Assembly (NCBI GenBank): GCA_050084985.1
Contig: JBITNC010000001.1
Coordinates: 93,620,001-93,684,000 of the forward strand
Direction of reading: 5' to 3'
Source: Nageia nagi
Taxonomy: Eukaryota; Plantae; Pinophyta
DNA: 64,000 nucleotides
This document shows positions 1-26,699 of this stretch, piece after piece. The translations under genes were made by a program, and so were the position numbers. Within the stretch, counting starts at the first letter, position 1; every line of letters begins with the position of its first letter. Below the pieces are notes generated by a model. The model ran no database searches and was not told the DNA's origin. It saw only the letters and a list, made by a program, of their open reading frames with translations.

Positions 1-440
1 ATCTAAACTCCTTGTAAGTTCAATTAATCACTTAAATGATATGTAGATACCTTAAGGGATTAATTGAATTCTTTATTATGTGTGGACTTTGACCTAACCA
101 TGGGGTTAGTTGGTAGGTTAAAGTTAGGTTATACATTTATTGTAACCCTAACCTTACCCTTGGGTTAAAGGGAGGTTAGGGAGGTGCTCTCAAGCTATAA
201 ATAGAGGGCCTCTCCTCTTGTAACATATCTAAGTTTTGGAGTAAGATTACTCTACTAGTTTGTGTAGGAGAGGAAGAGAATAGTTGTAAGAGGGGCATAC
301 TTGAGAATTGAGATACTAGTTGTGGATGTACTCCCAAGGAGGGAGGAACCACATTACACTTGTGTTATCTTGTGTGAATGTTGTATGATTGAGCTTCCTA
401 GTCTTGGACCTTGAGGATTAGAGTAGTGCTAATTCTCTCA
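1..440 (+). mobile_element. Partial LTR (3' or solo LTR end) of a copia-like family related to the LTRs at 22716 and 30117
   Basis: Has TATA-like CTATAAATAGAG (~195) and shares GTGGATGTAC..CCAAGGAGGGAGGAACCAC with the LTR at 30431-30461. It ends in CA at 440, where the gypsy gag homology (matching 8841) resumes. No PBS follows. Confidence 0.75.
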
Positions 441-2824
441 TATCTGGGGAGACTTTTCCACCAAAATACACTTTGTAGAAGTAGGGAAAAAAATAGGCAC
501 CTTTGATTTAACTGATTCCACATTGTTGGTGTCATGAAAATAGTGGTGGATGCTACTAACAATGTGTATTTTGGTTACATTTTTTATCTCTTTTAATGAA
601 ACATGCCTATATCCATGATTGTGAGCAAAATAATGATGTAACTCATTAGAAACACTTACTATACCAATGCAACCTCTTGGTTGTGAAGGAGGTAGAGGAT
701 TATTGTAAATCCCTAACTATTTGTTGTTAGGATGGATAGGTTCAATTTGTTCAATAGGTTTAGCATCCATCTTGATAGCTCCCTTATTGATAAAATTTTG
801 TATGATATGATTGAGATTCCTACAATTGTGAGTTAGATGCACAGGTACCTTGTGATAATTACAAAATTCTTCATATCAAAAATGCTTAGGCACACCAGTG
901 GGGAACATGGATTCAACAATAGGAGGTGACTTAATAAGCTCTTCTTTTAATAGGACATTAAGAAAATTGTTAATACTATCAGTGAAAGGTGTGAATTATT
1001 GCCTTCGTTTAGAGCTATTTTTGCATTTATGACCAACATTGTTTACCTTCAACCTTTTGGTACTCTCAAAGATTGGTTTCTAATTTTGAGAATTGTCATT
1101 ATTTCTCATAGCATATAGTTTTTTTATACATGGCTCTTTCTTGATAACAATGTCTGTCATATCTCCTAGTTTCATATCATGATTAAAGATGACAAATAAT
1201 TTATATATGGGCAATAAACCATTTGCAAAGGCATTTTTTAGATCTTGTTCAAGCATAATTATTGTATTAGCTATTTGTTTCCATACTTTTATAAATTCTT
1301 TGACATGTTGATTAGGTAATTGCTTAATTTTGCATAAGTTATTAAAATAAACTTTCTTGATTATATTATACCTAAACATTTTCAAGAATAAATAAATCAA
1401 ATATTCATACCTATTAATGCTTTTTTCAAGAAGCTAAAAATACCATTTGAGTGCATCATCTTTCATACTATAGGAGAACAATTTAGGTAACAAGTATCTA
1501 TCATGTATATATTCAATAGCTTCTTCTTGGAACTTTCTAACATGGATCTTAGGGTCTTGAAAACCATAAAATTTAGTAAAATTGACACTATTTTTTGAAA
1601 AAATACCTTAGCAAGAATTCTATTAGTTAAAGGTCTCTTGAGATAAGACAAGAAATCATCCTCATCAACCAAAGTATTTTTAGGTGTTATATTACTTATA
1701 TTGGTTGAGTTACTTTTTGGGGACGGTGGATGGGTTTGACGGGGATTTTGTGTATTTTTAAGTTCATCCTCTTTTAAGGTAACAAATGGACCTATTTGAT
1801 TAACCCTTTCATGCTCTATTTTATCCAGTATTTTAGCTAGGACTTCTAACTATTTCTATGAGGGTTCTTTGTACCAACTAGTAGTATCTTGAACTTCAAG
1901 AAGGATACTAGTTTTGATGTGATATTCTTTTAATGTACAATTAGGTTATAATTTGTAAGCTTCATTAATCATTTTATCAAGTTATTAGTTGATAAGAGTT
2001 TTAGAATATTCTTCTTGCATAATATTCTTATCTTTAGAATTCATACCTTTTTTAAATAAATCAGGCTTAAGGAGAAGGTAGTCGTAATCTTCATCATCTT
2101 CATCTTGAGCATCATCCTTGGCATTTTCCTCATCATGATTTTCATTAATATATTACATGCATTCTTTATTTATCTTTGGATCAAGACCTACATCATCTAT
2201 GTTCACACCATCAGCAACATGGTCACAATCTAGCATGTCACTAGCATCATTCTCTTTATGATTAGACACCTTCCATTTTGATATTCCTACAATTTCATAA
2301 GAAAATAGACTATCCTATAACTCTAAAACAACATAATTCTCTTCTATTAATTAATATTTAGTAAAAATATTAATCACAAGAGGAGCATTATTTGTAAGAT
2401 AATATTCCAATTTTTGCATGATAGATAACACTTCTTGAATAGAGTTAGCATAACAAGGGATTCTATCCAGTTCCAAAATTTCATCCTCACTATCAAAAGA
2501 GTCAAAATGAGTTACCATGTTCTCAAATTCATAAGGATCAATGGTAGCATGTCTCTTAGTAGTTTCACCAATAATTTCTAGAATGTGAGGATTCAGTGTC
2601 ACTATGAGCATCAGGAAGGGGTTCTTGGTAGGTAAGTCAGAATAATGTTGAACACTTCTCCTAAGCTCACTAAAGTGGAATTTTAACCTAGATAATTTAA
2701 GGTTTTATTTATTAAAGTCTATTTTTGGAACATTAGTAGAAAAAACCCTAGTTTAATCATTCTCTTTAGCTACTATTCGAAGAGTTTCATCTAAAGGAAC
2801 AAATAATAGCAAAAATGGATTCAT
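441..2824 (-). pseudogene. gag: Second copy of the gag-like ORF, interrupted at 440 by a copia-type LTR
   Basis: ORF-track fragments 2351-2611, 1463-1672 and 1080-1400 match those of the 8826-11232 copy. EFCNYHKVPVHLTHNC is at ~825-870. Confidence 0.8.
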
Positions 2825-2889
2825 GATTTTTTAAAATAAAGTGCCCTATATTAAGACCTAGGTGTCTAAGAATGTCAAGTTCACCAAAA

Positions 2890-3569
2890 TGTAGACCCAA
2901 AATAATGCCTAAATAATAAAGGGGATTAATTAATGCACTATTTGGACTACTTTGTTTTATTGACACATATATATGAAATATGGCAATAATGATAAATAGA
3001 CATACATGTTCATTTTATCCCAATCATATGTTTGATTAATTAATGAGATCATACACCAAATGAAAATAGTCATTCATTCATTAGCACACTATTAATGGCC
3101 TAAATAAGACACACCAATAATAGCTAAAAGAGGTAAAATTGCAAGTGGGACAAAAGATATGAAGATGCTTGAACAAATGATTCATAAGATAATGAATATG
3201 TAATAAGATTTAGAAATTATACTCATGTATTACAAATATAATATCTTATGGTCTCCCTTAGGTCTTCCTCTTCATTATCTTTACATTTATTCTTGTTCTT
3301 ATTGTGGATTCTATAGTTTCATGTAGCCTTGATATCCTTTGATGATTTTTTTGATAATGATCCTCTTCCCCCCTCCTTTTTGGTTGCTTTTAATGTATTT
3401 ATATAGCAACATATTTATTACAAAATTTTGACCCCTTGTACATAGTACAATTGTCCATTACATGAATTACATAGCTTTGGGTATTGTTGTAACTCTTTTT
3501 ACATTATACATTGTTTATTCTCTAAAATTAATTATTTAATAAATAATAATTCATTTTTAGGAGTCTACA
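2890..3569 (-). repeat. Shared central LTR of the tandem gypsy element
   Basis: Termini are TGTAGAC...GTCTACA (7-bp inverted ends). The PPT (minus AAAGAGGAGCAAAA, 3570-3583) lies on one side and the PBS (2873-2886) on the other. Confidence 0.85.
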
Positions 3570-4189
3570 TTTTGCTCCTCTTTAGAGGTGTGATTGAGGA
3601 AGTGAAATTACATGTCCAAAAAAGAAGTATAGAAGAAATATTTTTGGGAATTTTAAACTCTTTACTGCACCACCTCTTTTTGTTGGTGATGAAATGAGGA
3701 GCCTTTGTTGCCCCCTTTTAGCTTGGATGGCCTAGAAAAGATCATTGAATGGTGCAACCAAGGCAAAATCTAAAGAAATGTATCTTTGTAGGAATTATGT
3801 TATTTGTATTTATGGAAATGATTGTGATATTAGGTAGTTGTATGGTTCCATATCCAATGTTGAAGATGGAAGATGTATTTTTGCCCTTTATGTTATTTCA
3901 ACCATAAATTTGGTCATTTTGTTGTGTTTGGTACTCAATAACCATTTACACTTATGTCCATTCCTTGAAACAAAGGTTATCTACTTTATCTAAGATGAAA
4001 TGTGAAGGAAATGCACACCAATGATGGTATGGGAATAGTAAGCATGCCATTGACACTTAGGATCATGGGTATTTTCTTCTATTATTTGAGATGTAGATAC
4101 TTGCAATGAAATGTTAGCAATACCTTGCATAAAAATAAGGTGGATGCATAGTGAGTTGATTCATCCATTAATGATGATTAAATATCAAT

Positions 4190-4695
4190 AATCTACTTAT
4201 GATTGCAATGTTAGTATTTCTTTTAAGTGAGTGAACTCTCACTAGTCATGTCAATGGCCATTGATAATCATATGTTTTATGTATATGACCAAAAGACATT
4301 ATGTTTTGTATGGTTCAAAGGAAAAATCATGTGGATACATAGCAAGTTGCATCTTCCATTGGAGATGAGCCAATGTCAACATCTTGCTTATGATTGCATC
4401 ATCAATTTATCTTTTAAGTGAGTGAACACTCACTAGCCATGTCGTTGGCCATAAATGATCATACATTTTATGTCTATGACCTAAATACATTATGCTTTGT
4501 ATGGTTCAAAAAAAAAAAACTATTTAGATACACAATAAGTTGCATCATCCATTGGAGATGAGCCAATATCAACATCTTGGTTATTGATGCATTGTTGGTT
4601 TATCTTTTAAGTTAGTGATCTCTCACTAGTCATGTCATTGGCCATAGGCGATCACATGTTTTATGTCTATGACCTGAAGATATTATGCTATGTAG
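4190..4695. repeat. ~191-bp tandem repeat (~2.5 copies) in the 3' UTR of the gypsy element
   Basis: TTTTAAGTGAGTGAACTCTCACTAGTCATGTC recurs at ~4221, ~4412 and ~4605. Confidence 0.85.
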
Positions 4696-6349
4696 TAAGG
4701 ATGAAATAAATAGACTCATAGTGATGTAGAATATGATACATAGATTAGGTTAGTGAGAGATAAAATAATAAATGCAATATTTTCTCATGGAATACCATGG
4801 CTATGGAAAATAATTGTTAGTACTTTAAGGAATTATGCCTTAAATCATTCATTCATATAATTATCAATAAATCATAGTATGAAATATATGAAAATATACC
4901 TGATATTCAACAATTCAGTGGTCTTAGATCTCAATCTACATGAGTTTTCAAAGAAAACCCATGTTGTTGGTAATATGACATGTGACAAATTTTCTAATCT
5001 TATCTTCAACAAGACTGATCATTACCTTAAAAAGATGTCATTTCCATAAAAAAATAGAGAATAACTTCAAAGTGTGATGGAATATTGATATGCCCTAAGT
5101 AGAGGGATTTGTAGCAATTTTAGGTCATTGGCAGCATAGAATTGTTAATTTTTAATATAGAACTTTGGAAATCATGTAACAATCATGCACTTTTTTCATT
5201 TCAATATCATATAGAAATAGGGAATCATTTAGAATTTTCCATAATAATTTGAGAAATATGTTCAAGATAGCAAGTTTTGTTAATGTCCAGAATTCATCAT
5301 TCTAATGCATATGATATTCAAGTAATAATTGCATAAAATTATGAGATAGATATAATAGAAGAAATTATTTGAAAGTATGCCCAATTTATCCTTTTCCATG
5401 CCACTATTAGCATTCAAAAGGATTAATGAACACTCCCATAAAATGGTGCCTTCAATTGACAATGAGACATGAATTTTGGCTATACCTACATTCTTTATTA
5501 ATTATGATTTTTAAAGATAAAATTTTAATGTACTACATCAATAAAATTGAATATTCATAATACAATTTTATGTCATACAATGATATTCAAGTTTCATTCA
5601 TCATTCCAAAAAATTACAAATAGCCAAAATTGAAAGAGTGCATTTTAAATTTTGCTTATTTCCTCCAATTTTACATCGTTAGCGGCCTAAATTTAATATA
5701 AATTTAATTGAAAAATGCATAAGGTGTGATTTTTAACTTGGAACAAGTGGTAGGATATAAAATTAATTTTACTTATCATTTTAGGCCATTTCCAATTGAA
5801 TGCACGCATATATTATAAAAAAGGATGTCATTGGCAATGTGAAAATCATCATTTTATGCTTGCAAAAAGGGATGTTAGGTATTTAAAATATTTTCAAGCA
5901 TTTTGGTCATACAAAATAATGATTTCACATATTCTAGGACCAAAAAGAATTATTCCCTATATTTTACATCAAAATTCAACCTATATAAGCAAATTTAGAT
6001 AATAAAAATTCATTTTAACTTTTCAACTTCCTGATTTAGTGCTCTAGCTTCGTAGTCAACCAAGCGATGAAGTGCTACCTGATTTTCAATTGATTGACCA
6101 TGTTATTGAGAATACATGCATATAGAGGCATGATAGGCTGATTATTATCTTGTGTACATCATTTTAATTTAGTTTGACTCTTATTTGATGTGGTGAATGG
6201 CGATAGGAGGGGAATCGATCATCCTATCATAGGCATACAAGGACACATCATGGAGTACTTCCTCTCCTTATCGTATGATCACATAGTCAGTTTCTCATTT
6301 TCATTTTAATATGTATTTTTAATTTTTATTTTTATTTTAATTTTTAATT

Positions 6350-8184
6350 ATGCATTTTTCTCACATGAATTTATTTGTTCCACATTTTGCCTTCCAAGAG
6401 TGTAAGGGATTGATATGCAAAGGTCATATTACTACAACCATGCTTGATAAAATGCAAAGTTGGCCATGGACTTCCCACATGGATGATATCCTAGATAAGT
6501 GTGGGTTGGTTTATTTGGCCATCCCTAGTTACATCTAAAAATATCTTCCTCTTCTCACTACATTAGCCAAGTAGTTGGACCTTGATTGTTGTACATTTCA
6601 CTTGCCCCTAGGTGAAATGATAGTTACTCTTCTAGATGTTTACTCTATTTGGGGTATTCCTATCTAGGGAATCCTTGTATAGTAAAGAGAGATTAAAAAT
6701 AATAATATACATGAGAAAGAGGCCCTATAGTTAATGGGGGATGCAAACCACAATTGGGAGCATCAAGCTACTCATCTCATGAAGGTTTGCAGGTTCACCC
6801 TAGCTAGGCATCATTTATGTCTATATGTAGCTTCCATCATTACCACCTAATTGTGCTTAGAAAAGAGTATTTTTACATTACCCCTTGGATTGGTTTGGGT
6901 TTTATGATAGATATATCAGCTTGGGACCCAATTTGTGTGGGATCCACTAGTATTGGCATAGTTGTATAGGGACCTATACAACTTTGTTAATATTGACAAG
7001 TTCAATATTACCATTGCTCATGTTGGCCTATTGCAAATATGGGCCTATGAGTACATCATAGTTGTGCATCCCATCAGTCTTTAATGGGATCTAGAGGGTC
7101 CAAGGGATATTTCTTTAGTTTGTTGGACATCTCACATAAGTGGTTCTCAATATCTACACTCTCTAGAGGTGCAAAGGAGAGAGCTAGATCACTTGCAAGT
7201 AGAGGACCTAGTGTGGGTTTACTTTAAGGATTTTGATTGGCATGCTAATGCTCATGAACTTTCATAGGCTAAGAATCACTACTTATTCCATACTAGGAGA
7301 AATATCATCAAGCCATACCACCTCTACCATGTTTTGAGGTAGTTTGGGATCCAATAGGGGATCCCACCCATTCCCCCATGTTATCATAAATACATGGAAA
7401 AGAGGGATTTATCTATAGGCTTAGGAGGAGCCCCAAGTTGTGGATGGTGCAACTCATGTTTCTATGGCTCCCACAAATTCCCCTAATTACCCAACATGAT
7501 GGATCGGAGTCCATCTCGATGACATAAGGATGGAAGAGGATGATGACAGTGATGAGGAGGTGACCAATGAGGGGTCATATGAGGATGACCTATACCAATT
7601 TAATAATCCCATCCATGATATCCCAATTTAGGAATAAGAGGGAGTGGGAGGATTGACTCTACTAGCCATAGCTACCCCAGTTGTTGTACAAGGTAATAAT
7701 ATAGCCTAAGTTTGTAATTTATTAATTTTCATGTTATTTTTACTATTACAAAGTAACTAACCCATATGTGTGTGCAATAGGAGGCACAAATTCTAGGATT
7801 ACCTCATTGGAGGTTGAGGTTACTATATTGAGGCCTATGGAGGACCAATTGACTACATTATAGGCCACCCTCATGAAGAAGGACATCTAGATTACGACCT
7901 TGGAGTAGTCTATTAAGAGACTATAGGAGAGGTTGAGTATGGCCCCATTATACTAGTAGTGGAAATATATAGAGAGCCAAGTAGAAAAGATCATGGTGAA
8001 GGAGTGAGAAATCATAGCTTTGAAGGTTAAATATGCTCAAGTGAAGACCTTACTAGATAGCCATGGTGTGACTATGAGTGGCATTTCTAGAGAAACCATA
8101 ACTATGAGGGCCAATGGGAGTAGTAGGTGGGTTAGGTTTAGGACCATTGATATGGTGAATAGTGGTGGTAGTTCCCCTCCCTAG
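6350..8184 (+). pseudogene. Plant Mobile Domain (PMD, aminotransferase-like/MAIN-MAIL family) ORF antisense to gag, with acidic and coiled-coil-like tail
   Basis: Continues in frame from ATG 6350 through stops: LLTTLAK*LDLDCCTFHLPLGEMIVTLLDVYSIWGIPI*G (~6550-6670). Then WDPLVLA*LYRDL (~6940), LLQIWAYE (~7030), ELDHLQVEDLVW (~7180) and VLR*FGIQ*GIP (~7330). These are PMD hallmark motifs in the canonical order. Confidence 0.85.
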
Positions 8185-8825
8185 CGAGTTGTAAGGCATG
8201 AGGCCCATTGTTGTATACTATGTACTTTTCTTAGATATATATATATATATATATTATTTTGGACTCAAACTTATGTATATGAAATGTTTTGTTTATTATG
8301 CATGTGAATGTTCTATCTGTTTCTATGAAATGTTTATTATCTAACACTATGAACCTAATAATGAAATCTAACCTAAAAGTTACAAAAGAAAATGAACTTA
8401 ATATTTATAAATTATTCAAGATAATAAAAATAATTAATCATAATAAAACAAACATTAATTATAAAAATCCACCTAATGGAATCAAACAATATTCTAAGGT
8501 ACCAAAAAGGGACCCAACAAACATGTTCAAGTTATTTTTAATAGATGATAAGAAAACTAGCCTAAGCCTAAGACCATTCCAATGTACTTAAAAATGTTCT
8601 AAGATGCTGGAAATACTATCATTCAAAACCTTATCCTAGGAAATGTACACCATTGGTGGTGTATTTAGAATTGACCCATGCAAAGGAATGAAAGAAAAGA
8701 CTCAACACACACAAAAATAGTAGAAAATACCCCTAGTACATATAAATAACTACTTAAAATGCACAAAAATATAGAAAAGACCTTACCTAACTAATATATA
8801 GTACATATGAAAGTGGAGAAATTTA

Positions 8826-11232
8826 AGTGATTATTTTGTGTACCTAGGGAGATTTTTCCACCCAAATACACTTTGTAGAAGTAGGGATAAAAATAGACAC
8901 CTTTACTTTAACCAATTCCAAGTTGTTGACATCATGAAAATAGTGGTGGACATCACTAGCAACCTATGTTTTTGTAACATTTCTAATCCCATTCAATGAA
9001 ACATGCCTATATCCATGTTTATGAGCAAAATTATGACTAATTCATTAGAAACACTTATCATACCAATTCAACCTCTTGGTTATGGAGGTAGGGGATTAGT
9101 AAAAACCCCTAACTATTCATTATCAGGATGGATAAGCCCAATTTATTTAGTAGGTTTAGCATCCATATTGATACCTCCTTTATCGATAAAATCCTATATG
9201 ATATGCCTGAGATTCTTGCAATTGCAAATTAGATGCCTAGGTACCCTATGATAATTACAAAATTCTTCATATCAAAAATGCTTAGGCTTACCATTGGGGA
9301 ACTTGGGTTCAATAATAGGAGGCAACTCAATAAGCTCTTCTTTTAATAAGATATTAACAATATTGTCAATAGTATCAGTCAAAGGTGTGAATTATTGCCT
9401 TGGTTTAGAACCAATTTTGTGTTTATGAGCAATATTATTTCACTTTGACCTATTGGTGCTCTCAAGGATTTGTTTTTGATTTTGAGCATTATCATTGTTC
9501 CTCATAGCATATAGTTTTTTTATACATGGCTCTTTCTTGATAACAATGTCTATCATATCTCCTAGTTTCATATCATGATTAAAGATAACAAATAATTTAT
9601 ATATGGGTAATAGACCATTTGCAAAGGCATATTTAATATCTTGTTCAACCATAGTTATTCTATTAGCCATTTATTTCCATACTTATTCAAGTTCCTTGAT
9701 ACATTGATTAGGCGATTGCTTAATTTTGCATGAGTCCTTAAAATAAAATTTCTTGATGATATTATACCTAAAATTATGTAGGAATAAACAAATCAAATAT
9801 TCATACCTATCAATGCTTTTTTCAAGAAGTTGAAAATACCATTTTGAGTGCATCATCTTTCATACTATGGGAGAACATTTTAGCTAACAAGTATCTATCA
9901 TGCATATATTCAATAGCTTCTTATTTGAACTTTCTAACATGGATCTTAGGGTCTTAAAAACCATAAAATTTAGTAAACTTGACACTCTTTTTTAAGGAAA
10001 TAACTTAGCAAGAATTGTATCAGTTAAAGGTCTCTTGAGGTAAGACAAGAAATCATCCTCATCAACCAAAGTATTTTCAGGTGTTATATTGCTTATATTG
10101 GTTGAGTTACTTTTTGGGGAAGGTGGATGGGTTTGAGGGGGATTTTGTGTCTTTTTAAGTTCATCCTCCTTTAAGGCAAAAATGGACCTATTTGATTAAC
10201 CCTTTCATGCTCTAGTTTATCTAGTATTTCAGCTAGGACTTCTAACTATTTCTATGAGGGTTCTTTGTACCAACTAGTAGTATCTTGAACTTCAAGAAGG
10301 ATACTAGTTTTGATGTGATATTATTTTAATGTCTAATTAGGTTATAATTTGTAAGCTTCATTAATCATTTTATCAAGTTATTGGTTGATAAGAGTTTCAG
10401 GATCTTCTTCTTGCATAATATTCTTATCTTTAGAATTCATACCTTTTTTAAATAAATCAGGCTTAAGGAGAAGGTATTCATAGTCTTCATCATCTTCATC
10501 TTGAGCATCATCCTTGGCATTTTCCTCATCATGATTTTCATTAAGAAATTACATGCCTTCTTCATTTATATTTGGAGCAAGACTTGCATCATCTATGTTC
10601 ACACCATTATCATCATGGTCACAATCTGGCACATTGCTACCATCATCTTCTTTGTGATTAGACACCTTCCATTTTGATGTTCTTGCAATTTCATAAGAAA
10701 ATAGGCTATCCTCTAACTCTAAAACCACATAATACTCTTATATTAATTCATATTTAGTAAAAATATTAATCATAAGAGGAGCATTATTTGTAAGATAATA
10801 TTCCAATTTTTGCCTATCAGATAACACTTCTTGAACAGACTTAGCAAAATAAGGGATTCTATGTAGTTCCAAAATTTCATCCTCACTATCAAAAGAGTCA
10901 AAATGAGTTACCATGTTCTCAAATTCAAAAGGATAAATGGTAGCATATCTCTTAGTAGTTTTACCAATAATATCCATTTTCTTTCTAAAATGTGAGGATT
11001 TAGTGTCACTATGAGCATCAGGAAGGGGTTCTTAGATAGGTAAGTTAGGATTATGTTGAACACTTCTCCTAAGCTCACTAAAGTGGAATTTCAACCTAGA
11101 TACTCCAGGATTTTCTTTATTAAGGTATATTTTTTGAACATTAGTAGAATAAACCCTAGTTTTATCATTCTCTTTGGCTACTAATCAAAGTGCTTCATCT
11201 AAAGGAATGAATAATTGCAAAAATGAATTCAT
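8826..11232 (-). pseudogene. gag: Gypsy gag-like ORF with long N-terminal extension (disrupted)
   Basis: Motifs: GFxDPKIHVRKF, SMKDDALKW, LxKIKQxPNQxxKE and GLLP (retrotransposon gag), then EFCNYHxVxxHLxxNC (CHHC-type knuckle) and NPLP. It has stops and frameshifts, and no protease/RT is seen downstream. Confidence 0.8.
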
Positions 11233-11280
11233 GATTTTTTAGAAGAAAGTGCCCTAGATTGAGACCTAGGTGTCTAAGAA

Positions 11281-11294
11281 TGTCAGGTTCACCA
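11281..11294 (-). promoter_or_regulatory. Primer binding site, tRNA-Trp-like (second copy at 2873-2886)
   Basis: Minus strand TGGTGAACCTGACA lies 3 nt from the LTR end. It resembles the complement of the plant tRNA-Trp 3' end (TGGTGAACCCGACG, from memory) with CpG-type changes. Confidence 0.7.
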
Positions 11295-11297
11295 AAA

Positions 11298-11981
11298 TGT
11301 AGACCCAAAATAATACATAAATAATAAAGAGGATTAATTAATGCACTATTTGGACTACTTTGTTTTATTGACACATATATATGAAATATGGAAATAATGA
11401 TTAATAGGCATACATGTTCATTTTATCCCAATTGCATTTTCAATTATTTAATGAGATCATACACCAAATGAAAATATTCATTCATTCGTTAGCATGCTAT
11501 TAATGGCCTAAATAAGACACATCATTAATGACCTAAAAGAGGTAAAATTACACATGAAATAAAAGATATTAATATGCTTGAATGAATTATTCATAAGATA
11601 ATGAATATGTAATAAGATTTAGAAATGATACTCATGTATTATAGATATGATATCTGCTATGATCTCCCTTAGTTCTTCCTCTTCGTTCTCTTTACATTTG
11701 TTCTTGATCTTTTCGTGGCTTCTGTAGTTTCTTGTAGCCTTGATATCCTTTGATGATATTTTTGATAATGACCCTCTTCCCCTCTCCTTTTTGGTTTTCT
11801 TTAATTTCTTTGTATAGTAATGTATATTATTACAATATTTTGACCCATTGGACATAGTACATGGTCCATTACATGAATTACATAACTTTGGGTATTATTT
11901 TAACCCATGTTTACATTATAGATCATTAATGCTCTAACATGAATTATTTAATAAATAATAATCCATTTTTAGGCATCTATA
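11298..11981 (-). repeat. 5' LTR of the tandem gypsy element
   Basis: TGTAGACCC...GGCATCTATA, collinear with 2890-3569. It abuts copia RT sequence at 11982. Confidence 0.85.
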
Positions 11982-13011
11982 AAACTGCTATGAAGAGGGT
12001 GCTTAGATATTTATGTGGTACAACTAATTTTTCAATTCATTATCAAAGAAATAGAAAGGAAAAATCCCTAGATATTGAGGGTTTTATTGATGCAGATTAG
12101 GAAGAAGATCTTGATGATAGAATATTTATGAGTGGCTATGTCTAGAATTTATTTGGAGGAGCCATTAAATTTGGATGAGTAAAAGATAAGTTGTTGTTTC
12201 CCTTTCAACTACTGAATTTGAAAACATGGTAGCCACTCATGCAAGCAAATAAGAAATATGGTTGTAGAGATTATGTGTTTATATTGGTTTTGCACAAGGA
12301 GTTGTGCAAGTGAATTGTGATATCTAAAGTTTTATATTCTTGGCTAAGAATCTTTCTTTCATTACATGAACTAAGCACATTGATGTATGTACTAGTTCAT
12401 CAAGGACATGATTGAATAGAAGAAAATATTGGTGAAAAACATGGACACAAAGGAAAATATTATTTATGCTTTGACCAAGGTGATTAGCATAGAGAAATTC
12501 ATGTGGTTCACAAGTGAGATGGGTTTAGGTAGCCCAAGTGTTAAAGAAAATATATTTTATAGTTTTTCTACAAAGTATTAAACAAGTGGAATAATGTTAC
12601 ATATAGATTATCCTTTGTAGAGAAAGTACTATACATCAAGACCCTACCTTGATGGAAAAATATTTTGGGGATTCACCTAAGATTCACCTATTTTCACATG
12701 GCACTAGTGAAATTTCCAAGGTTTTATCTTAGTGAAAGGATGGGTCATTTATCTAGTGGTTTTCTAATACCACATTATGGTATAGGGTTGAGGGTTTTCC
12801 TATATATTCATTATAATGATCTAATTGTGGTAGATTGTATTCATTGTAACCAATAATATAGATAGAGAAGAAGCTCTTGACATGCTATAGTAGCTCACAT
12901 TGGATGAACTAAGGTAAATCTTATGTGTTCCTTATATTGGTGAGATTTTTATGTTTTGATTAATTCATTTTTGCACTATACTTTCATAATATATTAAGAT
13001 AAGTCTCTTCA
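11982..13011 (+). mobile_element. 3' end of a Tnt1/Tork-like Ty1/copia (RT end, RNase H, PPT, 3' LTR 12595-13011)
   Basis: Translates as AMKRVLRYLCGT...GFIDAD...SLSTTE...KHIDV. The LTR TGTTAC...CTCTTCA matches the LTRs of the copia at 54942-61748 (reverse complement). Confidence 0.85.
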
Positions 13012-13979
13012 AGAGGGATTGAAAAAGAGGGAAATATTGTCTTCATCGATAATGAAGAAGATAGACAAAGACCCAAGGTCAACAACCAAATGGATCCCCT
13101 CACAAATAGACACGGAGGGATCATCTTTATCCACCATCAAAGAGCTTCTAGAACTTCCTTTCTAGATATAAATTGTAGATTTTGCACTACCCTTACCACC
13201 TCCACTACAAGATCCTTCTCTACCTCCATCAAGAAAACCATTACACCCTCTAAAAACTCTACTCGAATGATTCACAACCACCTTAAACACTTCAGAATGA
13301 AACCCTAGCATAGTCATTTCTTAAACTATAATCATCATCATCATCATCAATATGTTACGATAATAATTGATCAAAAACTAATTGACTAAATAATTTAATT
13401 AAGAAGATAATATTATTCCAAACAATATTGATCAAAATATATATCCCTTTTTTTAAAATTACTAAAATAATTTAACTAAAAAAAGTTCAAAATTTTGATT
13501 AAAAATATTATAAGATTAATCATATATTTTATAAATGAATATATATTCATATTTGAAAATATATATATTAATAAATTTTTTAATTTTTCAAACTAAATTT
13601 TTTTCTTACAATTAATAATATAATTTATGTACAAATTATCAACAAACATAATAATAACAAATACTTAAGAATAACTAAGAAATTTATATAATAATCAATA
13701 TTAGTTATTTTATTTTCATTAATAAATTAATTAAAAAAATTTAAATAAATATTTTTTTAGAAATAAAAAAGAGAAATGGGGAATTATTCCCCACTCCCCA
13801 CACTTCCTTCAAAAGCAATACATGGCCCTTAGAAGAAATGTAACCAAAAAAACCAAATGGTAAGGGTGGCAAGCACAACAATAAAGGTTTTTGGTTCAAA
13901 TCTAGCAACCACACCTTTACAAGTTTGAATATTTCTATTATAAAATTAATTAACTTATGGTTGGTGCAATGTGGCACCA

Positions 13980-14883
13980 TGAATGGTGTGGCATATGTGA
14001 TGATGTGGCACCACTAGTGATGTGGCATACTAAATTATGATGATGTGGTGATGGTGGGAGATGATGATGTAGTGGATATAATTACATGGCTAATATGATG
14101 ATGTGATAAGTGGTGATGATGTGCACGATATGATAATGTGGTAGGCGGTGATGACATGATTTAGATGGCGATAATGACATGAAGAATATAATGATATGAA
14201 GAATATGATGAGATGAAGGAAAATGATAACTTAGTGGGAGATGATGATGTGGTAGGAGATGATGACATGGCCTATATGATGTTATGGAAAATATGATGAT
14301 GTGGTGGGAGATGAGGATGTGGTGGGTGATGATGATGTGTCCCATATGATTTCATGGCCTATATGATGATGTGGGTAATATGATTATATGTCCCATATGA
14401 TGATGTGGTAGGCAATGAGGATGTGGTGAATATGATGACATGGTAGGCCATGATGATAGGATCGATGATGGTGATGGGGTTAGTGATGATGTCATGATGG
14501 GTGAATATGATGGCAAGTGAATATGATGACATGGAGGGCCATGATAACAATATTATTTATGGTGATATGGTGGGGGAATATGATGATGTGGTAGTAGGTG
14601 ATGATGATGTGGAAGGAGATGATGATGTGGTTGATGATGACATGGTATCGATGATGATGTGATAAATATGATGATGTGGTAGGTGATGATGATGTAATAG
14701 GAAATGATGATTTGGTAGGTGATGATGATGTGGTGAGTGATGATGATATGGTGGATGATGATGACATACTAGATAGTGATGATGTGGATGATGACATGAT
14801 GAATATGCTGACATGGTGGATGATGATGATTTGATGGTCAATGATGATATGGTAATCAATGATGATATGGTGAATATGATGAC
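13980..14883. repeat. Degenerate GATGATGTGG / GATGACATGG minisatellite (left part)
   Basis: Dense repeats of ATGATGATGTGG and (GA)ATATGATGACATGG. The His/Ser/Ile-rich ORFs here are by-products. Confidence 0.9.
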
Positions 14884-17800
14884 TAATGGAATTAAAGGAT
14901 TCCAAATAACCAATATCTCCTTAAATTTTCTCCAACAAGAATGTGTCATTCATCCATCTAGCAAAGTAAAAAATAATCACATAAAAGATAACACATAATG
15001 TGTAATGGTTCCTCAAAATCTTGGAAGTTCATCCACTTTGAACCATCATTCTTTTTCTTCTCACAAGATAACTCTCCTACAAATTCTTAACAAATCTCCT
15101 ACAAGATCATCTCTATAAGAAAAGCATTACCATGCTTTATCAAGTTAGATCAAATTACAAAATGATAGGAGTACATCTCTATTTATAAGAAGAAATATAC
15201 CTTTTAACTTTCTTTTTACCCAAGGGTAAGGTTAAAGGTATTTCTATATTTATTCCTATTTCTATCTTTATTCTTTTAATGCTTTAAAGGTATATAAAGA
15301 TACTTTAATCATTAAGTGAATTTATATTGAAAAAATATAACACTATAAATATTACATAATATTACATTACAATTTCTAACATTTTCCCTTAATGCAATAT
15401 TGGGTAGAGGGTCAAAAAGACAAAGAGAAATAGTAAGAGAAAGTTCTCCTCCAAAGAGATACAAGTGAAGGATAAAAAATTTTACATCTTTGAGAAAGTA
15501 ATAGAATATAGATGGTTCTACAATGGCTCAACTACTTAACTATTTTAACAAATGGTTTTACAATACAATCATTAACCAAAAAATAATTTTTTTGTAAAAG
15601 AGTAGTCATTTAACAACATGTTGATAAGATGAGCCTCCATGTGCTTGCATACCCAAAGTCACATACAATCTCAAAAAGAAACCTGCAAGCTACAAGTAGA
15701 TCATAAATAAGATCAATTAGATACATTATATATACTCATATAAGATATATGTCATCCATAAACTAATCAAAAGATACCAAGTCATCAAATATACATAATA
15801 CCAAAGATAGCATACAATATCAACTATATATCACATGTGCATACTAAAAAGTACCAACCATAACATGATATCAACAATATCATAAAAGCACAAACTATCA
15901 AATGCCTAATCAACCAAATGATATAAATGCATTCTCAAAAAAAATTGATTTTTGATTTTTGTGTTTGTTTATTTTATTATGTATTTGTTGAGGGTACATA
16001 AACATGTCATCACACCATAATATTTCATAATTTTAATTCTCCACCTTGATGACAACTTCATCAAACAAATACTTATGTGACCATGATAGCTTAACCATGT
16101 CACAAATGGTTAAAAAGTAATATAACTAAACCACAAGTTTAGATTTTTAAGCCATAAATGCTAACATGACCAAACACAAATCCAAGATTTATAAGAAAAA
16201 GCATAAGCCACAACTAAAATAAACTTGACTTTACCAAGAGTGAGTCAAGATGCCACAGTAAATAAACTTGACTTTACCAAAAGTGAGTCAATATACCATC
16301 ATAACCATGCTACTAGTTAAGATGAATATGATAGAAAAAGATAGAATTCATTCAACAAGGATGCAATTTTCCATAAAAGATTTTAATGTAGGATAAGGGT
16401 GAACCTTTTAACCACTCCATCCACTACAAGTTTCTAACAAATAGTAGAGTGGCAATCAATCCATCATCATGGATATAACTTCCCAACATGGAAGTAAAAT
16501 GTGGTAGACAGTGCTCTATAAGTCATCATGAAGATGACAAGCCAATACTTATAGTCACAACCATATAAAAAAAATTATGTTTGGATTTGATCTATCAACA
16601 TGGAAGTAAATAAACATGGCACAATCCATCAATATGGATATTCTTCCAAAACATGGAAGTATACTTAGATTTTACTCCCCCTTAAGGATAACTTCATAAA
16701 AATTGAAGCATATTACACAGCTCTACAAAAAATGTAGAGAGGAATTTATATTTTCCAAAGTTACTTGTACACTTCCTTTCCAAAGCAAAATTAATATTGC
16801 ATTATTAATATCCTCAATAAGCCTAATGGAGAAATTTTAAAAATATTTCACTCCAACAAGTATATTAACCAAGGTGCATAAGCAAAAAATTAGGGATTAA
16901 TGCACAACAATTCCAATGTTGAATAAGTTTACAAACTCTACTCAACTAGTATGTGTGCAAAACCACAAAAAATAATCCAACTAGAATACAAAAAATATGC
17001 ACAATCAACAAAGATAGTAATGTTTGAAGAAAGTTTACACAAACTTATCACTTCAAATAATGTGCATAACAAAATTAATTTTAGAAGTTAAACTTTCATA
17101 TCATCTATTGATATAACAAATGTGTAGATATACATAAATATCAATTCATTGTTCAATGCACATAATAAATCTTTATGCAATATAAATTAATCTTAATTTG
17201 CAACCTAAGGATAGTGCATAAAAAATTAAACAAATTGTCATAATGTACATTCATAAGTTTTCATTTTAACAATGTGCAAATTTAATTATCAATATATTGA
17301 ATATTAATAATTTATCAAATAAATTGATTTTTATTTGTCCAATGTTGAAAGAATTTGTAAGTAATGGTTGCAACTAACTGCTTTAATTAACTTTGATTAT
17401 TTTTAAAAAATATCATCAAGGCATATAATTTGCAAATTACCATAGTAATTTTTCTAACTTGGATTAAATAAACTATCCAAAGTTTTAATCAAATATTTGA
17501 TACTTAACAATTACTATATTTGCAACATTATTAAAAAGCTACTAAAGCTATTAAAAAATATATATCAAAGTTATAATTCTTGTATAGGATATCCACTATT
17601 TAAAAAATATGTTCATATCACTTTTAAATAAAATATCAATTTGCATTTGCAAATTAATAAAAAAGAGACCATGGTTTAAAATGGGCATTAGATGACTTAA
17701 ATTTTTCAAACTCTCATCTCTTAAAAAAATTCACTCTTTTTGGTTTAAAAAACATACTTTTTATAACAAATAGTGCTTAAAAAACATGCCCCTTTAAAAA

Positions 17801-19466
17801 AAAAATCCTTATTTCTATAAAAAGATATCATTTAATATAATGGTCTATAAAAAATTCCTCCCTGTCTAAAAATAATATCCTTAGTTGATTTTAAACTAAG
17901 AGGATTTAGAGGAGAGAAGGAGTGACATTGGGTGCAAAACCAAACCTTGTACCTTTTTTCAGTAAGTTGGATAGATGGAAAAGAAATCATAGGCCCTATA
18001 GAGGGCATTTGACCTTGAGAAGAGGTGGGGATCAGTAGGGTGACCAGAGCCTAGTTGCATGCCACATGAGAGAAGGGGTTGTAGCCCCACATGGTGGTTT
18101 ATCCTCCCCTGGAAGGCTATGGCTCCTCATGGGAATTGCTCCTCACTTGGGATATGGTGGCCCCTTATAGCTTCCAAGGCCCCTTGGGGTTGACATGACC
18201 CTGCAAGGTACGTGTCCCCTTGGGGCCAACATGACCTCTGCAAAGGTCTGTGCTCCCCTTACAGGGTATATGCCCCCTTGGGTTACTTTTATTTTTCTTT
18301 TCTTTTAAGAAAAAAAAATTAATTTTTATTATATAAAAAAACTTAAAATTATTTTTTTAATTAAAAAAATTCTATTTTAATTTTAAAAAAACCATGAAAT
18401 TATTTTTCCTTTTTTTAAAAAATTGCAATTACAAAAAATTGCAACTAAAAAAATAGAATTTTTTTCTACTTTTTTTTAAACAAATTTTGCATGCATGTAA
18501 TCATGAATGAAATTTAATTTTTACAAATATTTTGTAAAAAAAATTGTGTAATAGCATTATAGTTATTTTGTATAGACTAAAAATTTCAAGATTTTTAATT
18601 ATTTCTATACTAAATAGAAACTTGTAATTTTAAGCTATAACAATCCATTTGAGAAAATTTACTCAAAATTTTGCATACTATTACTACACATTAAATAATT
18701 TTATTAAATTTGCAACTAACAAATTGTTAGTAAAAAAAAATAATGCATAGTAAAAAATTGAACTAACATGTTCTTTAATCAAATTTTGCTAGACTTAAGC
18801 TCATCATCAAGAAACCAAAAGAGGTTAAGTATTAAAGCAAAAATTTGACAAGAAGAGGTAAATTATACCTTCAAACCCTTTTACCTCAACTCTTGATGGA
18901 GAGAAAAGAGAAATGGACCTTCAAGGTTGTTGAAGTGGAGAATCCAAAAATGGCTCTGATACCACATGATGGAATTGAAGGATTCCAAATAACTAAGATC
19001 TCCTTGAATTTTCTCCAACAATAATTTGTCATTATTCCATCTAGCAAAGTAAGAAATAATCACATAAGAGATAACACACAATGTATAGTGGTTCCTCCAA
19101 CTCTTAGGAGTACATCCACTTTAAACCATAATTCTATTACTTCTCATAAGATAACTCTCCTACAAATTTTCAACAAAGCTTTTACAAGAGCATCTCTATA
19201 AGACAAGCATTACCATGTTTTATCAAGTTAGATCAAGTTACATAATAAAAGGAGTACCTCTCTATTTATAAGAAGAAACCTACACTTTAACGTTCTTTTT
19301 ACCCAAGTGTAAGGTTAAAGGTGTTTCTATATTTATTCATCTTTCTATTTTTATTCTCTTAATACATTAAAGGTATATAAAGATGCTTTAAGCATTAAGT
19401 GAATTTATATTAAAGAGAAATATAACACTATGAATATTACACAATATTACATTACAATTTCCAACA
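14884..19466 (-). mobile_element. Non-autonomous, non-coding LTR element (LARD-like) related to the copia at 22716
   Basis: LTRs at 14884-15381 and 18967-19466, PBS-Met TGGTATCAGAGCCA (18951-18964), PPT next to 15382 and TSD ATGAC/GTGAC. The 5' leader and 3' UTR match those of the 22716-30582 element. No pol motifs are seen. Confidence 0.85.
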
Positions 19467-21130
19467 GTGACATGGTAGGTGATGATGATGTGGTGATTGA
19501 TGATGATATGGTAGTCAATGATGATATGGTGGTTGATTTTGATGTGGCAATAAATGATGATATGGTGGTCAATGATGACATAGCAGGTAATGATGATGTG
19601 GTGAATATGATGATGCAATGAATATGATAACATGAAGAATATGATGATGTAGTGAATATGATGACACGATGAATGTGATTATGTGGTTAGTATGATGAGT
19701 ATGATGAGGTGATAGGAGATGATGATGTGGTGGGTGATGATGATGTGGTGAATATAATGATGCAATGAATATGATGATGTAGCAAATATGATGACATGGC
19801 AAGTGATGATGATATGGTGGGTGATGATGATGTGGTAGATATGATGCTGTATGATGACTTGGCAAATATGATGAGTTGGTGGGTGATGATTATATAGAAA
19901 ATATTTTGATATTAAAAATATGATGATGTGGTGAATATGATATCATAATAAATATGATTATGTGATGAATCTAATGATGTGATGAATCTTATGATGTGAA
20001 AAATATGATGATATGGTAAATATGATGATATAACGAATTTGATGACATGATGAATATGATGACATGGTAAATATGATGATGTGATGAATATGATGACATG
20101 GTGAATATGATGACATAGCAAATATGATGATATGATGGGTGATGATGATGTGGTAGGCAATGATGATATGATAGGCAATGATGACATGATGAGTATGATG
20201 ATATAGAAGGCAATTATGATATAATGACTATGATGATGTGGTAGGTGATGATGACACGGTGAATATGATGATGTGGTAGGTGATGATGACATGGTGAATA
20301 TGATGATGTGGTGGGAGATGATGATGTTATGAATATGATGATGTGGAGAATATGATGATATGATCAACAATGATGAATGACATGGAGAATATGATGATGA
20401 GAATAATATGATGACATGGTAGGAGATAATGACATGGTAGGAGATGATGATGTGGTGAATATGAGGATGTGATCGATGATGAGGATGTGATCAACAATGA
20501 TGATGTGGAGAATATGATTATGTGAAGAATATTATCATATAGATAATATGATGATGTGGTGAATATGATGACATGGTGAGAGATATTGACATAGAAAATA
20601 TGATGACATGATAGGCAATGATGACATGATGAGTATGATGATGTAGCAAGCAATGATGACATGAAAAATATGATGATGTGGAAAATATGATGATGTGGAG
20701 AATATGATGATATGGATGATATAATTACATGGTGAATATTATGACATGGATAATATGATGATATGTTGGATATGATGATGCGAAAAATATGATGACATGG
20801 TGAATATGATGATGTAGTGAATATGATGATGTGGAAGCAAGGGTGATGTGGTGAATATGATGACATGGTATCAATGGTGATGTGGTGGTAAGGGTGACAT
20901 GGTTAATATGATGACATGGAGAAAATGATGATGTGGCAACAAGGATGATATGGTGATGAGGGTGACATGGTAGATATGATGACATGGAGATGAGGTTGAC
21001 ATGGTAGATATGATGACTTGGTGATGAGGGTTACATGGTAGATATGATGATATGATAAATAATATGGCATGGAAATGAGGATGATGTGGCAATGAGGATG
21101 ACATGGAAAATGGATGATGTGGTAGGACAT
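19467..21130. repeat. Degenerate GATGATGTGG / GATGACATGG minisatellite (right part)
   Basis: Same units as 13980-14883, resuming immediately after the inserted LTR element. Confidence 0.9.
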
Positions 21131-21664
21131 GCTACTTTTAAACAAGTGACATGTGGCAACATAGATCTCACTTACATGGAAAATTGGGACCCTCACAAAA
21201 TAACAAAAAATTTAAAATGTCAAAACTTTTAAAATATAAATCCATTTTAAGTAATTCAAATTACACTAGAAAGAAATTGACATGAATTTTTTGAATTTTA
21301 TATCAAAATATTGAAACAAAAATTTTAAAATTTTAGATTTTTGGTAGGTAAGATGCTGCAAGATGACATGGCAAGGTGGGATCCACCAAAAATTGAAATG
21401 ATCATAACTTTTGTGTTATTGCCTTGATTTTGACAATTCAAAATGTATTGGAAAGATCTCAGAAATTGATATCCAAAAAATTCATAAAATTTTAGTTTTG
21501 ATAACTTTGAAATTTGACATATATTTAATGTATATACACCCAAATTTCAAGAGCACATATCTTGATCAAAATAACTTAGATTTTGATGATTCCAATTGTA
21601 TTTTGAAAATCTCAATAATTAGATTTCAAATATATAAAAAGATTTAATTTTGATATCCTAAAAA

Positions 21665-22650: not shown

Positions 22651-23719
22651 CAATAGTAAAGGTCCTTTTGTAGGATCATGTTTCATCAAAATTCTTGATA
22701 ATCTTGTCGATTATATGTTAGAATTTGTAATGTAATATTATGTAATAATTCTCTTTAATGTAAATTCACTTAATGCTTAAAGTATCTTTAGATATCTTAA
22801 AGAATTAAGGGAATAAAAATATAAAAGGGGTTAAATATAGAAAGGAGATTAAATATAGAAATATCTTTAACCATACCCTTGGCTTAAAGGGAGGTTAAAG
22901 AGTGGGTTTCTTCTTATAAACAGAGAGGTACTCCCCCTCTTGTATTATACAACATAGAAACAAGCTTTGCTATAGGTTTAGGGTTTGGAAAGAGATGAGA
23001 GATTCTATAAGAGAGGTCTTTGAGAATAAAAAGATCTTAGTTAGTGTATGTGCTCTTAAAGAGGGAGGAACCATTTATATCTTATGTTCATTATGAGATT
23101 GGTTTGTGTTATTGTGCTATTGTGTTGATGTTGTGAGTGTCTTCTTGAGATCTTGGTAGATTAGAAGTTAATTTAGAAAAGGTTAATTTCATTAAGTGGT
23201 ATTAGAGCCATTCTTGGAGGATTATCTTCAACATTCTTGAAGGTCCATTCCTATTCTTTCTCCATATACTTTGTTGATGTAAAAAAAGCTTGAAAGTATA
23301 ATCTACCTCCTATCATATTCTTTGTCAAATTTTGCCTATATTACTAAACATTTTGGTTCTTTGATTATAAAATCATTTTAGCAAAATTTATTCAAAGTAA
23401 TATATCATTGTTATTTTGTTATACTAACATGTTAGTACAATTTTTATGTTATTGCTATGCATTATTTTTTACTAACAATAGTTTGTTAGTTGCAATTTTT
23501 TTAAGTAAAATTGTTTAATATGTAGCAATAATATGTTAATTGCAAATTTTAAATAAATTTGTTTAAATATAGCAATAATATGTTATTATATCTAAAATTT
23601 GCAAGTTTCTAGTTAGTGTAGTTATGGTTAAAAGTATTACAATTTTTTTACTATAATGTTATTATTGTAATATTATTTTTACAATCCTAATATGTTTGTA
23701 GAAATAAAATTACATACAA

Positions 23720-24165
23720 TTACATGCATGCATTTTTTAAAAATATATTACATATATGCATTTTTTAAATATATTACATGCATGCATTTTTTAGAGAGCT
23801 TTATATTACATGCATGCATTTTTCAAAAATAAAAATTACATGCATGCATTTTTTAGAGCTTTATATTACATATATGCATTTTTTTTAAATAAAAATCATG
23901 CATGAATTCTTTATAGAGCTTTATATTACATGCATGCATTTTTTTTAAATAAAAATTAGATGCATGCATTTTTTAGAGAGCTTTATATTACATGCATGCA
24001 TTTTTAAAAAATAAAAATTGCATGCATGCATTTTTTAGAGAGCTTCATATAACATGCATGCATTTTTTAGAGAGCTTTATATTACATGCATGCATTTTTT
24101 AAAAATAAAAAATACATGCATGGATGCATTTTTTAAAAATAAAAAATACATGCATGCATGCATTA
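23720..24165. repeat. Array of TTACATGCATGCATTTTT units (RY-like CATGCATG)
   Basis: About 14 copies spaced ~30 bp apart, alternating with AGAGCTTTATA and AAAAATAAAA linkers, followed by (TA)n. Confidence 0.9.
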
Positions 24166-25684: not shown

Positions 25685-26195
25685 ATGAAATGGTTAAAAA
25701 GGTTCACCCTTCTCCATGGTTGAGAATTTGATGGAGTGGTTAAAAAGGTTTGCTCTTATCTGTGGTTGAAAATTGGATGGAGTGGTTAAAAAGGTTCATC
25801 CTTCTCTATGGTTGAAAATTAGATGGAGTGGCTAAAAAGGTTCATCCTTCTTAATGGTTAAAAATTTGATGGAGTGGTTAAAAAGGTTCACCCTTCTCCA
25901 TTCTTAAAAATTTGATAGAGTGGTTAAAAAGGTTTGCCCTTCTCCATGGTTGAAAATTTGATGGAGTGGTTAAAAAGGTTTTCCCTTTTTCATAGTTGAA
26001 AATTTGATGGAGTGGTTAAAAATATTCACTCTTCTCCATGGTTGAAAATTTGATGGACTAGTTAAAAAAGTTCGCCCTTCTCTATGGTTGAAATTTTGAT
26101 AGAGAGGTTAAAAAGGTTCACCCTTATACATGGTTGAAAATTTGATGGAGTGGTTAAAAAGGTTCATCTTTCTCCATAATTGAAAAGGTTCACCT
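25685..26195. repeat. 46-bp tandem repeat (~11 copies)
   Basis: Unit is TTGATGGAGTGGTTAAAAAGGTTCACCCTTCTCCATGGTTGAAAAT, with no spacers. Confidence 0.95.
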
Positions 26196-26699
26196 TATGC
26201 CACTTTACTTCCATTAGTAAGAAGTTTATTCATTATGGATAAATACCAATTTACTTCTATTACTAGGAAGTGTATTTATGCATTGATGGAAGTTGAATCC
26301 TTGTTAATAGATTAATGCTACCTTCATCCATCATTTGCATCTTGACTAGTAGTATGGTTAAGTTGACATTATTTATGATTTGTACATCTCTATAGAGAAG
26401 TTGACTTATGGATTTATATAGTTAAGATGTCATGGTCAAGTAAATTTTATCTTATGCCATATTAAATAAGGCATTTATTTGAAAGATTTTGTATAGATTC
26501 TAATCTAGTGATCAAAATGCCTTAGTGATTGATTTATATATTTGAAACTTCCCTCATGAATGGTGCATTAGTTGTTAGAGATAATGTAATGACTATGAGT
26601 TTGAAATTTGTTAAAGGTAATTTGTTTGACCTTTCTACAAATATGCTTAACCATATTTTAGATAAATAATTTCGTATGATAGCCTATATATTTGAGAAA

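Follow-up and report, generated by a model that had tools for sequence, protein, structure and literature searches.

Antisense genes for a Plant Mobile Domain (PMD) are known from retrotransposons of the Tat group. In the passages of the literature on which this comparison draws throughout, an antisense PMD extra open reading frame (eORF) appears first in the gymnosperm Tat lineage III, and PMD together with a coiled coil in lineages IV and V (PMC4408406); PMD is present in 57% of Ogre elements, and 431 of 434 PMD matches lie 3' and reversed in Ogre as classified in REXdb (PMC6317226). What a retrotransposon-borne PMD does is described as an open question, as is whether the host MAIN/MAIL genes derive from such a PMD (PMC5418596). 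Non-autonomous long terminal repeat (LTR) families with GAG and PROT only, and TR-GAG elements, form a known class (PMC13570524), and defective Retand clusters, reported from eudicots and monocots only, retain antisense TRP28 ORFs (PMC11963269). Here we analyse a 64,000-nucleotide stretch of the genome of Nageia nagi (contig JBITNC010000001.1, positions 93,620,001 to 93,684,000; hereafter the window), in which positions 441-11981 probably hold a decayed tandem copy of a family that has gag and an antisense three-exon PMD/coiled-coil gene but no pol, which it likely borrows from a complete Tat-type element; a candidate for this helper was found in one of the related loci (L003:790-9871).

The window element resembles the described Tat/Ogre elements (PMC4408406, PMC6317226) in having an antisense PMD in its 3' part with a coiled coil after the PMD, as in lineage V, a long 3' region with tandem repeats, and a gag related to Tat-type gags. 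It differs in that Tat/Ogre elements are described as complete with pol, whereas here pol is missing family-wide, the PMD gene is spliced and the candidate helper has no PMD. The primer-binding site (PBS) of the window element is of the TGGTGAACC type, as against the tRNA-Arg type of TatIII; REXdb gives tRNA-Trp for TatI and Phygy, not for TatII/TatIII (PMC6317226). Ogre as defined in REXdb likewise has a tRNA-Arg PBS, and an angiosperm rather than a gymnosperm host. The window PBS is complementary to CCA-ended small RNAs of Cryptomeria that map to gypsy repeats (PMC5846777, Table 3), and the passages covered gave no support for a tRNA-Trp assignment. By its gag, its PMD and its helper, the element is Tat-derived; it is not a canonical Tat member, because the aRH domain, a Tat feature, is missing from it together with the rest of pol while being present in the helper.

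Like the TR-GAG and GAG/PROT-only elements (PMC13570524), the window element has kept gag, lacks reverse transcriptase (RT), RNase H (RH) and integrase (INT), and would depend on a helper; it differs from them in its length of 9.1 kb, its gag of ~800 codons, the absence of any protease that we could find, and the presence of a second gene under selection (PMD). That paper, on sugar beet, makes no mention of 'mobile domain' or 'antisense'. One related locus, L014, may be a gag-only derivative, unlike the gag+PMD members of the family. The defective Retand elements (PMC11963269) have similarly lost core domains and kept an antisense extra ORF, and Retand has been recently active; their clusters, however, were selected by RT and keep it, and their cargo is TRP28 rather than PMD. 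The candidate helper has the order RT-RH-aRH-INT reported for the 'retroviral-structure' Tat elements of conifers II (Tat J) and for Ginkgo, gnetophytes and angiosperms (PMC13468544); that paper mentions neither PMD nor 'autonomous', and a term search of PMC7264820 gave no match. The first-pass annotation of this DNA had put the element forward as its best candidate for an undescribed system, which overstates the case, because antisense PMD(-coiled-coil) genes in Tat (PMC4408406, PMC6317226) and a gag-only class (PMC13570524) are known. Each part has a precedent, and it is the combination that was not found: neither a pol-less gag+PMD family nor a PMD-less helper was met with in the passages of the literature searched, subscription journals and Repbase lying outside their scope.

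Organization of the window element

When the window is compared with itself, 441-3567 proves to be a repeat of 8841-11979 (88.5% over 3,145 bp); the span 441-11981 is a tandem of LTR, internal region, LTR and gag on the minus strand (Table 1), and the far end of the tandem unit extends past window position 1. The internal region between the two LTRs (3570-11297) measures 7,728 bp, giving an element of 9.1 kb, with both the PBS and the polypurine tract (PPT) adjoining the LTRs. The PBS, which we take to be of the tRNA-Trp type, reads TGGTGAACCCGAC in the relatives L001 and L002. The usual TG...CA ends are present in the second LTR, the first starting with TA. A 193-bp tandem array (2.7 copies by Tandem Repeats Finder) occupies 4181-4694; in L001, a 192-bp array (8516-8842) is inverted relative to the element, the opposite of the window orientation.

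When 441-11981 was searched against Pfam in six frames at E<=1, the only families to appear were PMD (PF10536) on the plus strand (E 3.2e-21, around nt 6545-7369) and, on the minus strand, Retrotrans_gag (PF03732; E 1.4e-6, nt 1484-1212, inside gag copy 2); gag copy 1 was recognised through its repeat of copy 2 and by tblastn rather than by Pfam. No protease, RT, RNase H or integrase was detected in these searches, and the pol pieces of the closest complete element, that of L003, gave no tblastn match to the window at E<=1. Much of the first-pass annotation is thereby borne out: the layout of gag and antisense PMD between PBS and PPT is real, with PMD on the plus and gag on the minus strand in the six-frame profile search, the internal region is of the 7.7 kb it gave, and protease, RT and integrase are indeed absent. 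Its treatment of 441-11981 as the element stands for the LTR-bounded unit and fails for the whole span, which is a tandem with a second gag. The two genes are not the open ORFs that it described, the longest stop-free stretch in window 1-14000 being 128 aa, with all reading frames of the element broken, and the PMD unit being a three-exon gene.

Table 1. Parts of the element and its left-hand neighbour, with positions in the window.
Feature	Position	Strand	Remarks
gag copy 1	8823-11232	-	about 800 codons with its own stop; broken by stops and frameshifts
gag copy 2 (tandem unit)	441-2824	-	ends a few codons short of the stop; 89% to copy 1
PMD exon 1	6190-6285	+	32 codons; tblastn matches in L001, L003, L005, L015
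Predicted intron 1	6286-6397	+	GT donor in 5/5 aligned copies, AG acceptor intact in 2/5
PMD exon 2	6398-7692	+	PMD (about 6545-7369; PF10536), then acidic stretch
Predicted intron 2	7693-7780	+	GT donor in 8/8 aligned copies, AG acceptor intact in 5/8
PMD exon 3	7781-8184	+	predicted coiled coil and basic tail, then stop; tblastn matches in 7 loci
Non-coding spacer	8185-8822		638 bp between the convergent gag and PMD stops, where pol would lie
5' LTR	11298-11981	-	684 bp; starts TATAGA, ends CTACA; termini common to relatives and helper
Primer-binding site	11282-11294	-	TGGTGAACC-type
Second LTR	2890-3569	-	680 bp, TGTAGA...CTACA; serves unit 1 as 3' LTR and unit 2 as 5' LTR
Second PBS	2874-2886	-	PBS-like TGGTGAACC after the second LTR
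Polypurine tract	3570-3583	-	directly ahead of the LTR start; same position in helper, L003, L005
3' untranslated end	3570-4700	-	resembles 3' end of the complete element in L003
End of unrelated, very abundant LTR	1-440	+	terminates in CA at 440; an insertion in gag copy 2, foreign to the element

This is an old copy in advanced decay, with a CpG observed/expected ratio of 0.09. The two LTRs are 88.5% identical (Kimura two-parameter distance, K2P, 0.125) and the two gag copies have diverged to a similar extent (K2P 0.116), nearly evenly over the three codon positions (0.11, 0.08 and 0.10; dN/dS 0.63). This near-even divergence, at a distance like that of the LTRs, leads us to infer a single tandem duplication and, after it, decay that was mostly neutral. 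At the conifer substitution rate of near 2e-9 per site per year, the copy would be tens of millions of years old, an estimate that deamination inflates.

Absence of pol in related loci

Relatives were sought by aligning gag against JGI assemblies, where 221 pattern matches led to 15 confirmed loci, whose DNA across gag and PMD has 63-78% identity to that of the window. This sample comes from seven assemblies, possibly of one host, and was fished with the family gag. Nine of the loci extend at least 1.3 kb past gag and are informative for what follows it; the remaining six (L006, L008, L009, L010, L011 and L013) run out no more than 440 bp from where gag ends and were left out of the count. None of the nine has pol behind gag, whether the probes were the helper pol pieces or 14 long relatives of the gag, of which some include protease, RT or RNase H. 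Seven (L001, L002, L003, L004, L005, L012 and L015) carry parts of the antisense PMD gene, whose end lies about 640-770 bp behind gag, and in the window, L003 and L005 the sequence can be followed all the way from gag to the 3' LTR and contains no pol. Of 13 loci long enough to include the gag stop, 12 have it at a single aligned column, as has the window. Taken together, the common stop column, the absence of pol from all nine loci and the pol-free spans show that the loss of pol is old and common to the family, not local.

The other two informative loci differ from each other. L007 is interrupted, 557 bp of spacer being followed there by unrelated sequence, and in L014 gag runs almost straight into the sequence upstream of PMD, with neither PMD nor pol. 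The sequence after gag in L006, L009 and L011 is 80-86% like L014:3623-4400, and a gag-only subfamily may therefore exist.

The gag gene

The gag product consists of a ~400-aa family-specific N-terminal part, the capsid domain and a C-x2-H-x4-H-x4-C motif, which we take to be knuckle-like. The N-terminal part (window 10000-11232, minus strand) is kept in L001, L002, L006, L009, L012, L014 and L015 and is missing from the helper gag; its first 351 residues gave no Pfam match. A HMMER search with gag returned 372 matches at E<=1e-3, the close ones being short unnamed fragments; the database fragments P0051 and P0101 terminate at the same motif as the family gag. No match was obtained in a word-seeded protein search with gag among longer proteins, and scans of IMG/VR with gag and with PMD yielded no locus.

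Six codons ahead of the gag stop, 12 of 14 aligned copies have a GTA, mostly after AG or AA (window 8843-8846). Its third base is invariant, while synonymous sites elsewhere diverge widely, and in sequence this GTA looks like a splice donor.

The antisense PMD/coiled-coil gene

The gene model has three predicted exons of about 600 codons in total, convergent to gag, and the protein would comprise a short N-terminus, the PMD, an acidic stretch and a predicted coiled coil. The start codon of exon 1 is present in three of five aligned copies and missing in that of the window, where exon 2 is also disrupted by stops and a frameshift near 7410-7450. Pfam recognises the PMD in four of the five cores scanned (L001, L003, L005 and L015), and gives exon 3 only weak matches of coiled-coil type. 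Neither a word-seeded search for protein homologues of the PMD nor a search of PDB sequences at E<=1 produced a match, and a structure prediction was unreliable (pLDDT 33).

Selection on the two genes

Both the PMD gene and gag are under purifying selection across the family. Median dN/dS values from pairwise comparisons (NG86) were 0.15 for PMD and 0.17 for the coiled-coil exon (six copies each) and 0.28 for gag (five copies), after pairs with saturated dS had been dropped (6/15 for PMD, 5/15 for the coiled coil and 0/10 for gag); the same alignments read in antisense or shifted frames gave 0.64-1.72. Codon models in IQ-TREE gave similar omega values of 0.18 (PMD), 0.11 (coiled coil) and 0.25 (gag). 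For the window, L001 and L004 pairs, the proportion of synonymous differences (pS) was 0.72-0.85 in PMD, compared with 0.36-0.48 in gag. The pol-less junction is common to the selected copies, and most of this selection would therefore have acted after pol was lost.

A candidate helper element

The closest complete element, L003:790-9871, is of Tat type and is inserted in the gag of a gag+PMD copy on the same contig, which shows that helper and family coexisted in one genome. Its LTRs, of about 620 bp, are 90% alike, and it is bounded by a 5-bp target duplication with two transitions. Pfam identified gag, RT, RH, aRH and INT, the aRH lying between RH and INT (RVT_3, E 2e-4), and tblastn a protease-like region; neither method found a PMD. 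The intron that Ogre elements are described as having between gag and protease on one side and pol on the other (PMC6317226) was considered for the ~750 bp after the helper protease and rejected, because one frame continues from the protease through a G-patch-like motif into RT; the stop density of this stretch is ordinary. This description rests on one complete copy. Pieces of other complete Tat-like elements lie at L003:15985-20546 (minus strand), with an integrase 41-52% and a protease region 39% identical to those of the helper.

The LTRs of the helper start and end like those of the window element, and both elements have the TGGTGAAC PBS and the same PPT. Furthermore, window 4688-3426 matches the 3' end of the helper at 75.8% over 1,281 bp; in 200-bp bins, identity to the helper is 73-79% over window 4700-3400, compared with 49-58% to two other pol-less copies over 4700-3600. 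The window LTR is 64-66% identical to that of the helper, 69-70% to that of the pol-less L001 and about 50% to those of L002 and L012. The latter two represent a second LTR type, which is also found on the gag+PMD copies of L003 (15277-15984) and L005 (5831-6572 and 10146-10904). L005 also carries an apparent solo copy of this second type. The shared sequence features make L003:790-9871 a likely helper of the pol-less family.

The gag genes tell of a more distant relationship. Although helper and family gags lie together on one side of a 99/97 branch of the gag tree, opposite 26 distant gags, they are only about 22-30% identical to each other and that of the helper sits on a long branch, which means that simple deletion from this helper does not account for the family. 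In soybean, a non-autonomous family (SNRE) is said to take LTR and 3' sequence from autonomous partners (SARE) in a comparable way; SNRE, however, reportedly originated recently from its own partner, in contrast to the divergent gags seen here.

Contig depth in run X1, which was taken at 80% likeness, is not a copy number and serves as a hint only, was 630-4,800 for the helper gag-pol, 145-970 for the family gag, 1-49 for PMD, 5,000-10,000 for the shared 3' end and about 10,600 for the second LTR type. In some X1 contigs, the 3' region of the pol-less family is continuous with the tandem array of helper type.

Proposed mechanism and alternative explanations

The proposal of the first-pass annotation, that this is a non-autonomous gag+PMD family borrowing pol in trans, has gained from each of these comparisons: pol is absent behind gag in all nine informative relatives, PMD occupies a fixed place in seven of them, dN/dS is low in PMD and gag and high in the other frames, and there is a candidate donor that shares LTR ends, PBS, PPT and 3' end. 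Neither of the two outcomes that this annotation had named as refuting it, pol between gag and PMD in most family copies or a PMD inside a nested insertion with termini of its own, was borne out. In the mechanism that we consider probable, a transcript from the 5' LTR would serve to make Gag and would enter particles together with helper RNA and Pol, so that protease, RT, RNase H and integrase would be supplied by the complete Tat-type element. A tRNA would prime synthesis at the shared PBS, helper integrase would act on the shared TGTAGA...CTACA ends, and template switching in mixed particles would explain why the 3' end and the LTR of the window lineage are helper-like. Transcription of the PMD gene would start at a promoter of its own within the 3' region, and because the introns of this gene lie on the strand opposite to the packaged RNA, they would outlast retrotransposition.

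Several observations weigh against this account. The sample of loci is small and biased, having been selected by the family gag from seven assemblies, and PMD is dispensable in at least one copy, since L014 has gag without it. Identity to the helper over the whole LTR is only 64-66%, four pol-less copies carry the other LTR type, and the helper gag is both divergent and on a long branch. The depth of PMD in X1 is far below that of gag, which means either that many gag copies have no PMD or that PMD DNA is too diverged to be counted at 80%. Finally, a complete family bearing the abundant second LTR type was not seen, and such a family could carry a PMD.

By analogy with MAIN, MAIL1 and MAIL2, and in line with the possible chromatin or counter-silencing protein of the first-pass annotation, we suggest tentatively that the PMD protein may be a nuclear factor that keeps these LTRs unsilenced; the PMD proteins of hosts counteract H3K27me3 at DNA motifs, and they have been modelled as similar to the VANC anti-silencing domain (10.1101/2024.09.27.615353). 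There is, however, a nearly even chance that the PMD/coiled-coil protein is not anti-silencing at all, and that it serves, for example, the element RNA, the particle, the integration site, or a benefit to its own element only. The anti-Polycomb data of the same preprint concern host PMD-C proteins, studied in Arabidopsis, not retrotransposon PMD-A, the function of PMDs borne by transposable elements is stated as unknown in PMC5418596 and PMC9289625, and the coiled-coil exon is constrained as much as the PMD. A fuller division of labour, in which an abundant, PMD-less complete Tat element gives the enzymes and the pol-less satellite gives capsid and a trans-acting PMD that counters silencing, seems to us distinctly unlikely. 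Under such an arrangement, the PMD protein would act in trans on LTR and 3' motifs common to both partners, the satellite would be a mutualist trading protection from silencing for pol, and the swapping of LTRs would track changing helpers.

We think it rather unlikely that the family, although pol-less, has as its true partner a complete pol+PMD family that we have not seen, the L003 element being one of several opportunistic donors and pol and PMD not being divided between partners. Such a partner would fit the complete Tat elements with PMD described from lineage III of gymnosperms and lineage V of angiosperms (PMC4408406), and the depth of the second LTR type, far above that of PMD, means that another large family exists; it should be added that a single complete helper copy was examined. 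The helper nevertheless lived in the same genome as the family, into a copy of which it inserted, and the window element has an LTR roughly as near to that of the helper as to that of the pol-less L001, together with a helper-like 3' end.

It is very improbable that we are dealing with an ordinary complete element that lost its pol locally after insertion. Internal deletions are common in old, decayed element copies, and this copy, with its CpG ratio, is certainly one; but copies in which the synonymous sites of PMD are nearly saturated still have this gag stop and this short spacer in common, and in none of the nine informative loci does pol follow gag. A separate nested insertion of the PMD gene, as a Mutator-like element (MULE) or a host gene fragment, is barely credible even though MULEs carry PMDs (PMC5418596) and the gene has host-like introns, because it lies in the same place and orientation in seven loci, with conserved splice donors, an antisense PMD-coiled-coil layout that matches the one described for Tat elements, and no long inverted repeats bracketing it in 3570-8840 (the best being 38 nt at 71%, AT-rich).

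Other features of the window

The rest of the window is AT-rich, repeat-filled DNA. The unrelated LTR at 1-440 has a depth of about 112,000 in run X1, and related pieces occur elsewhere in the window and in L002. To the right, the element is flanked by a copia fragment (11986-13012), 77% identical to 55899-54941. Repeats of the GATGATGT type, 17/18/35 bp in length and strongly GC-skewed, form arrays at 14000-14900 and 19450-21200, adjoining LTR-like repeats at 14886-15185 and 18969-19268. At 23700-24180 and 25575-26278, close to a copia element (SH3 26990-27460, RVT_2 27972-28274), there are a 30/32-bp TGCATGCA array and a 46-bp array of 11 copies.

A host gene exon of CRAL-TRIO (Sec14-like) type lies at 53864-54283 on the minus strand. 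Among 24 matches to 53888-54283, the closest were from Araucaria (87%), a 'Gb_' protein (87%), which we read as Ginkgo, and Taxus (81%), with named fern, liverwort and angiosperm matches at no more than 73%. These matches mark the host as a gymnosperm, likely a conifer. A copia element (LTRs 54942-55247 and 61307-61625) adjoins this exon and is probably in an intron; within it, 56900-58700 is an insert of higher GC content, which includes a 259-aa ORF that matched nothing in Pfam and repeats of 72/114/144 bp that have inverted-repeat cores. A 182-aa ORF at 39997-40545 (plus strand), also without Pfam match, resembles the C-terminal zinc-binding end of a long interspersed nuclear element, and a 94-aa stretch at 45935-46219 (minus strand) may be a host exon.

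Implications

Because the family has no RT, surveys of conifer giga-genomes that are based on RT would miss it. The conserved introns of the PMD gene indicate how a spliced gene can ride in a retroelement, namely by virtue of its antisense position. The helper, which has pol and lacks PMD, offers a natural comparison for a trans-acting role of PMD, and the persistence of strong purifying selection on PMD in a family devoid of all of pol suggests a benefit to the retroelement that is independent of the element's own enzymes.

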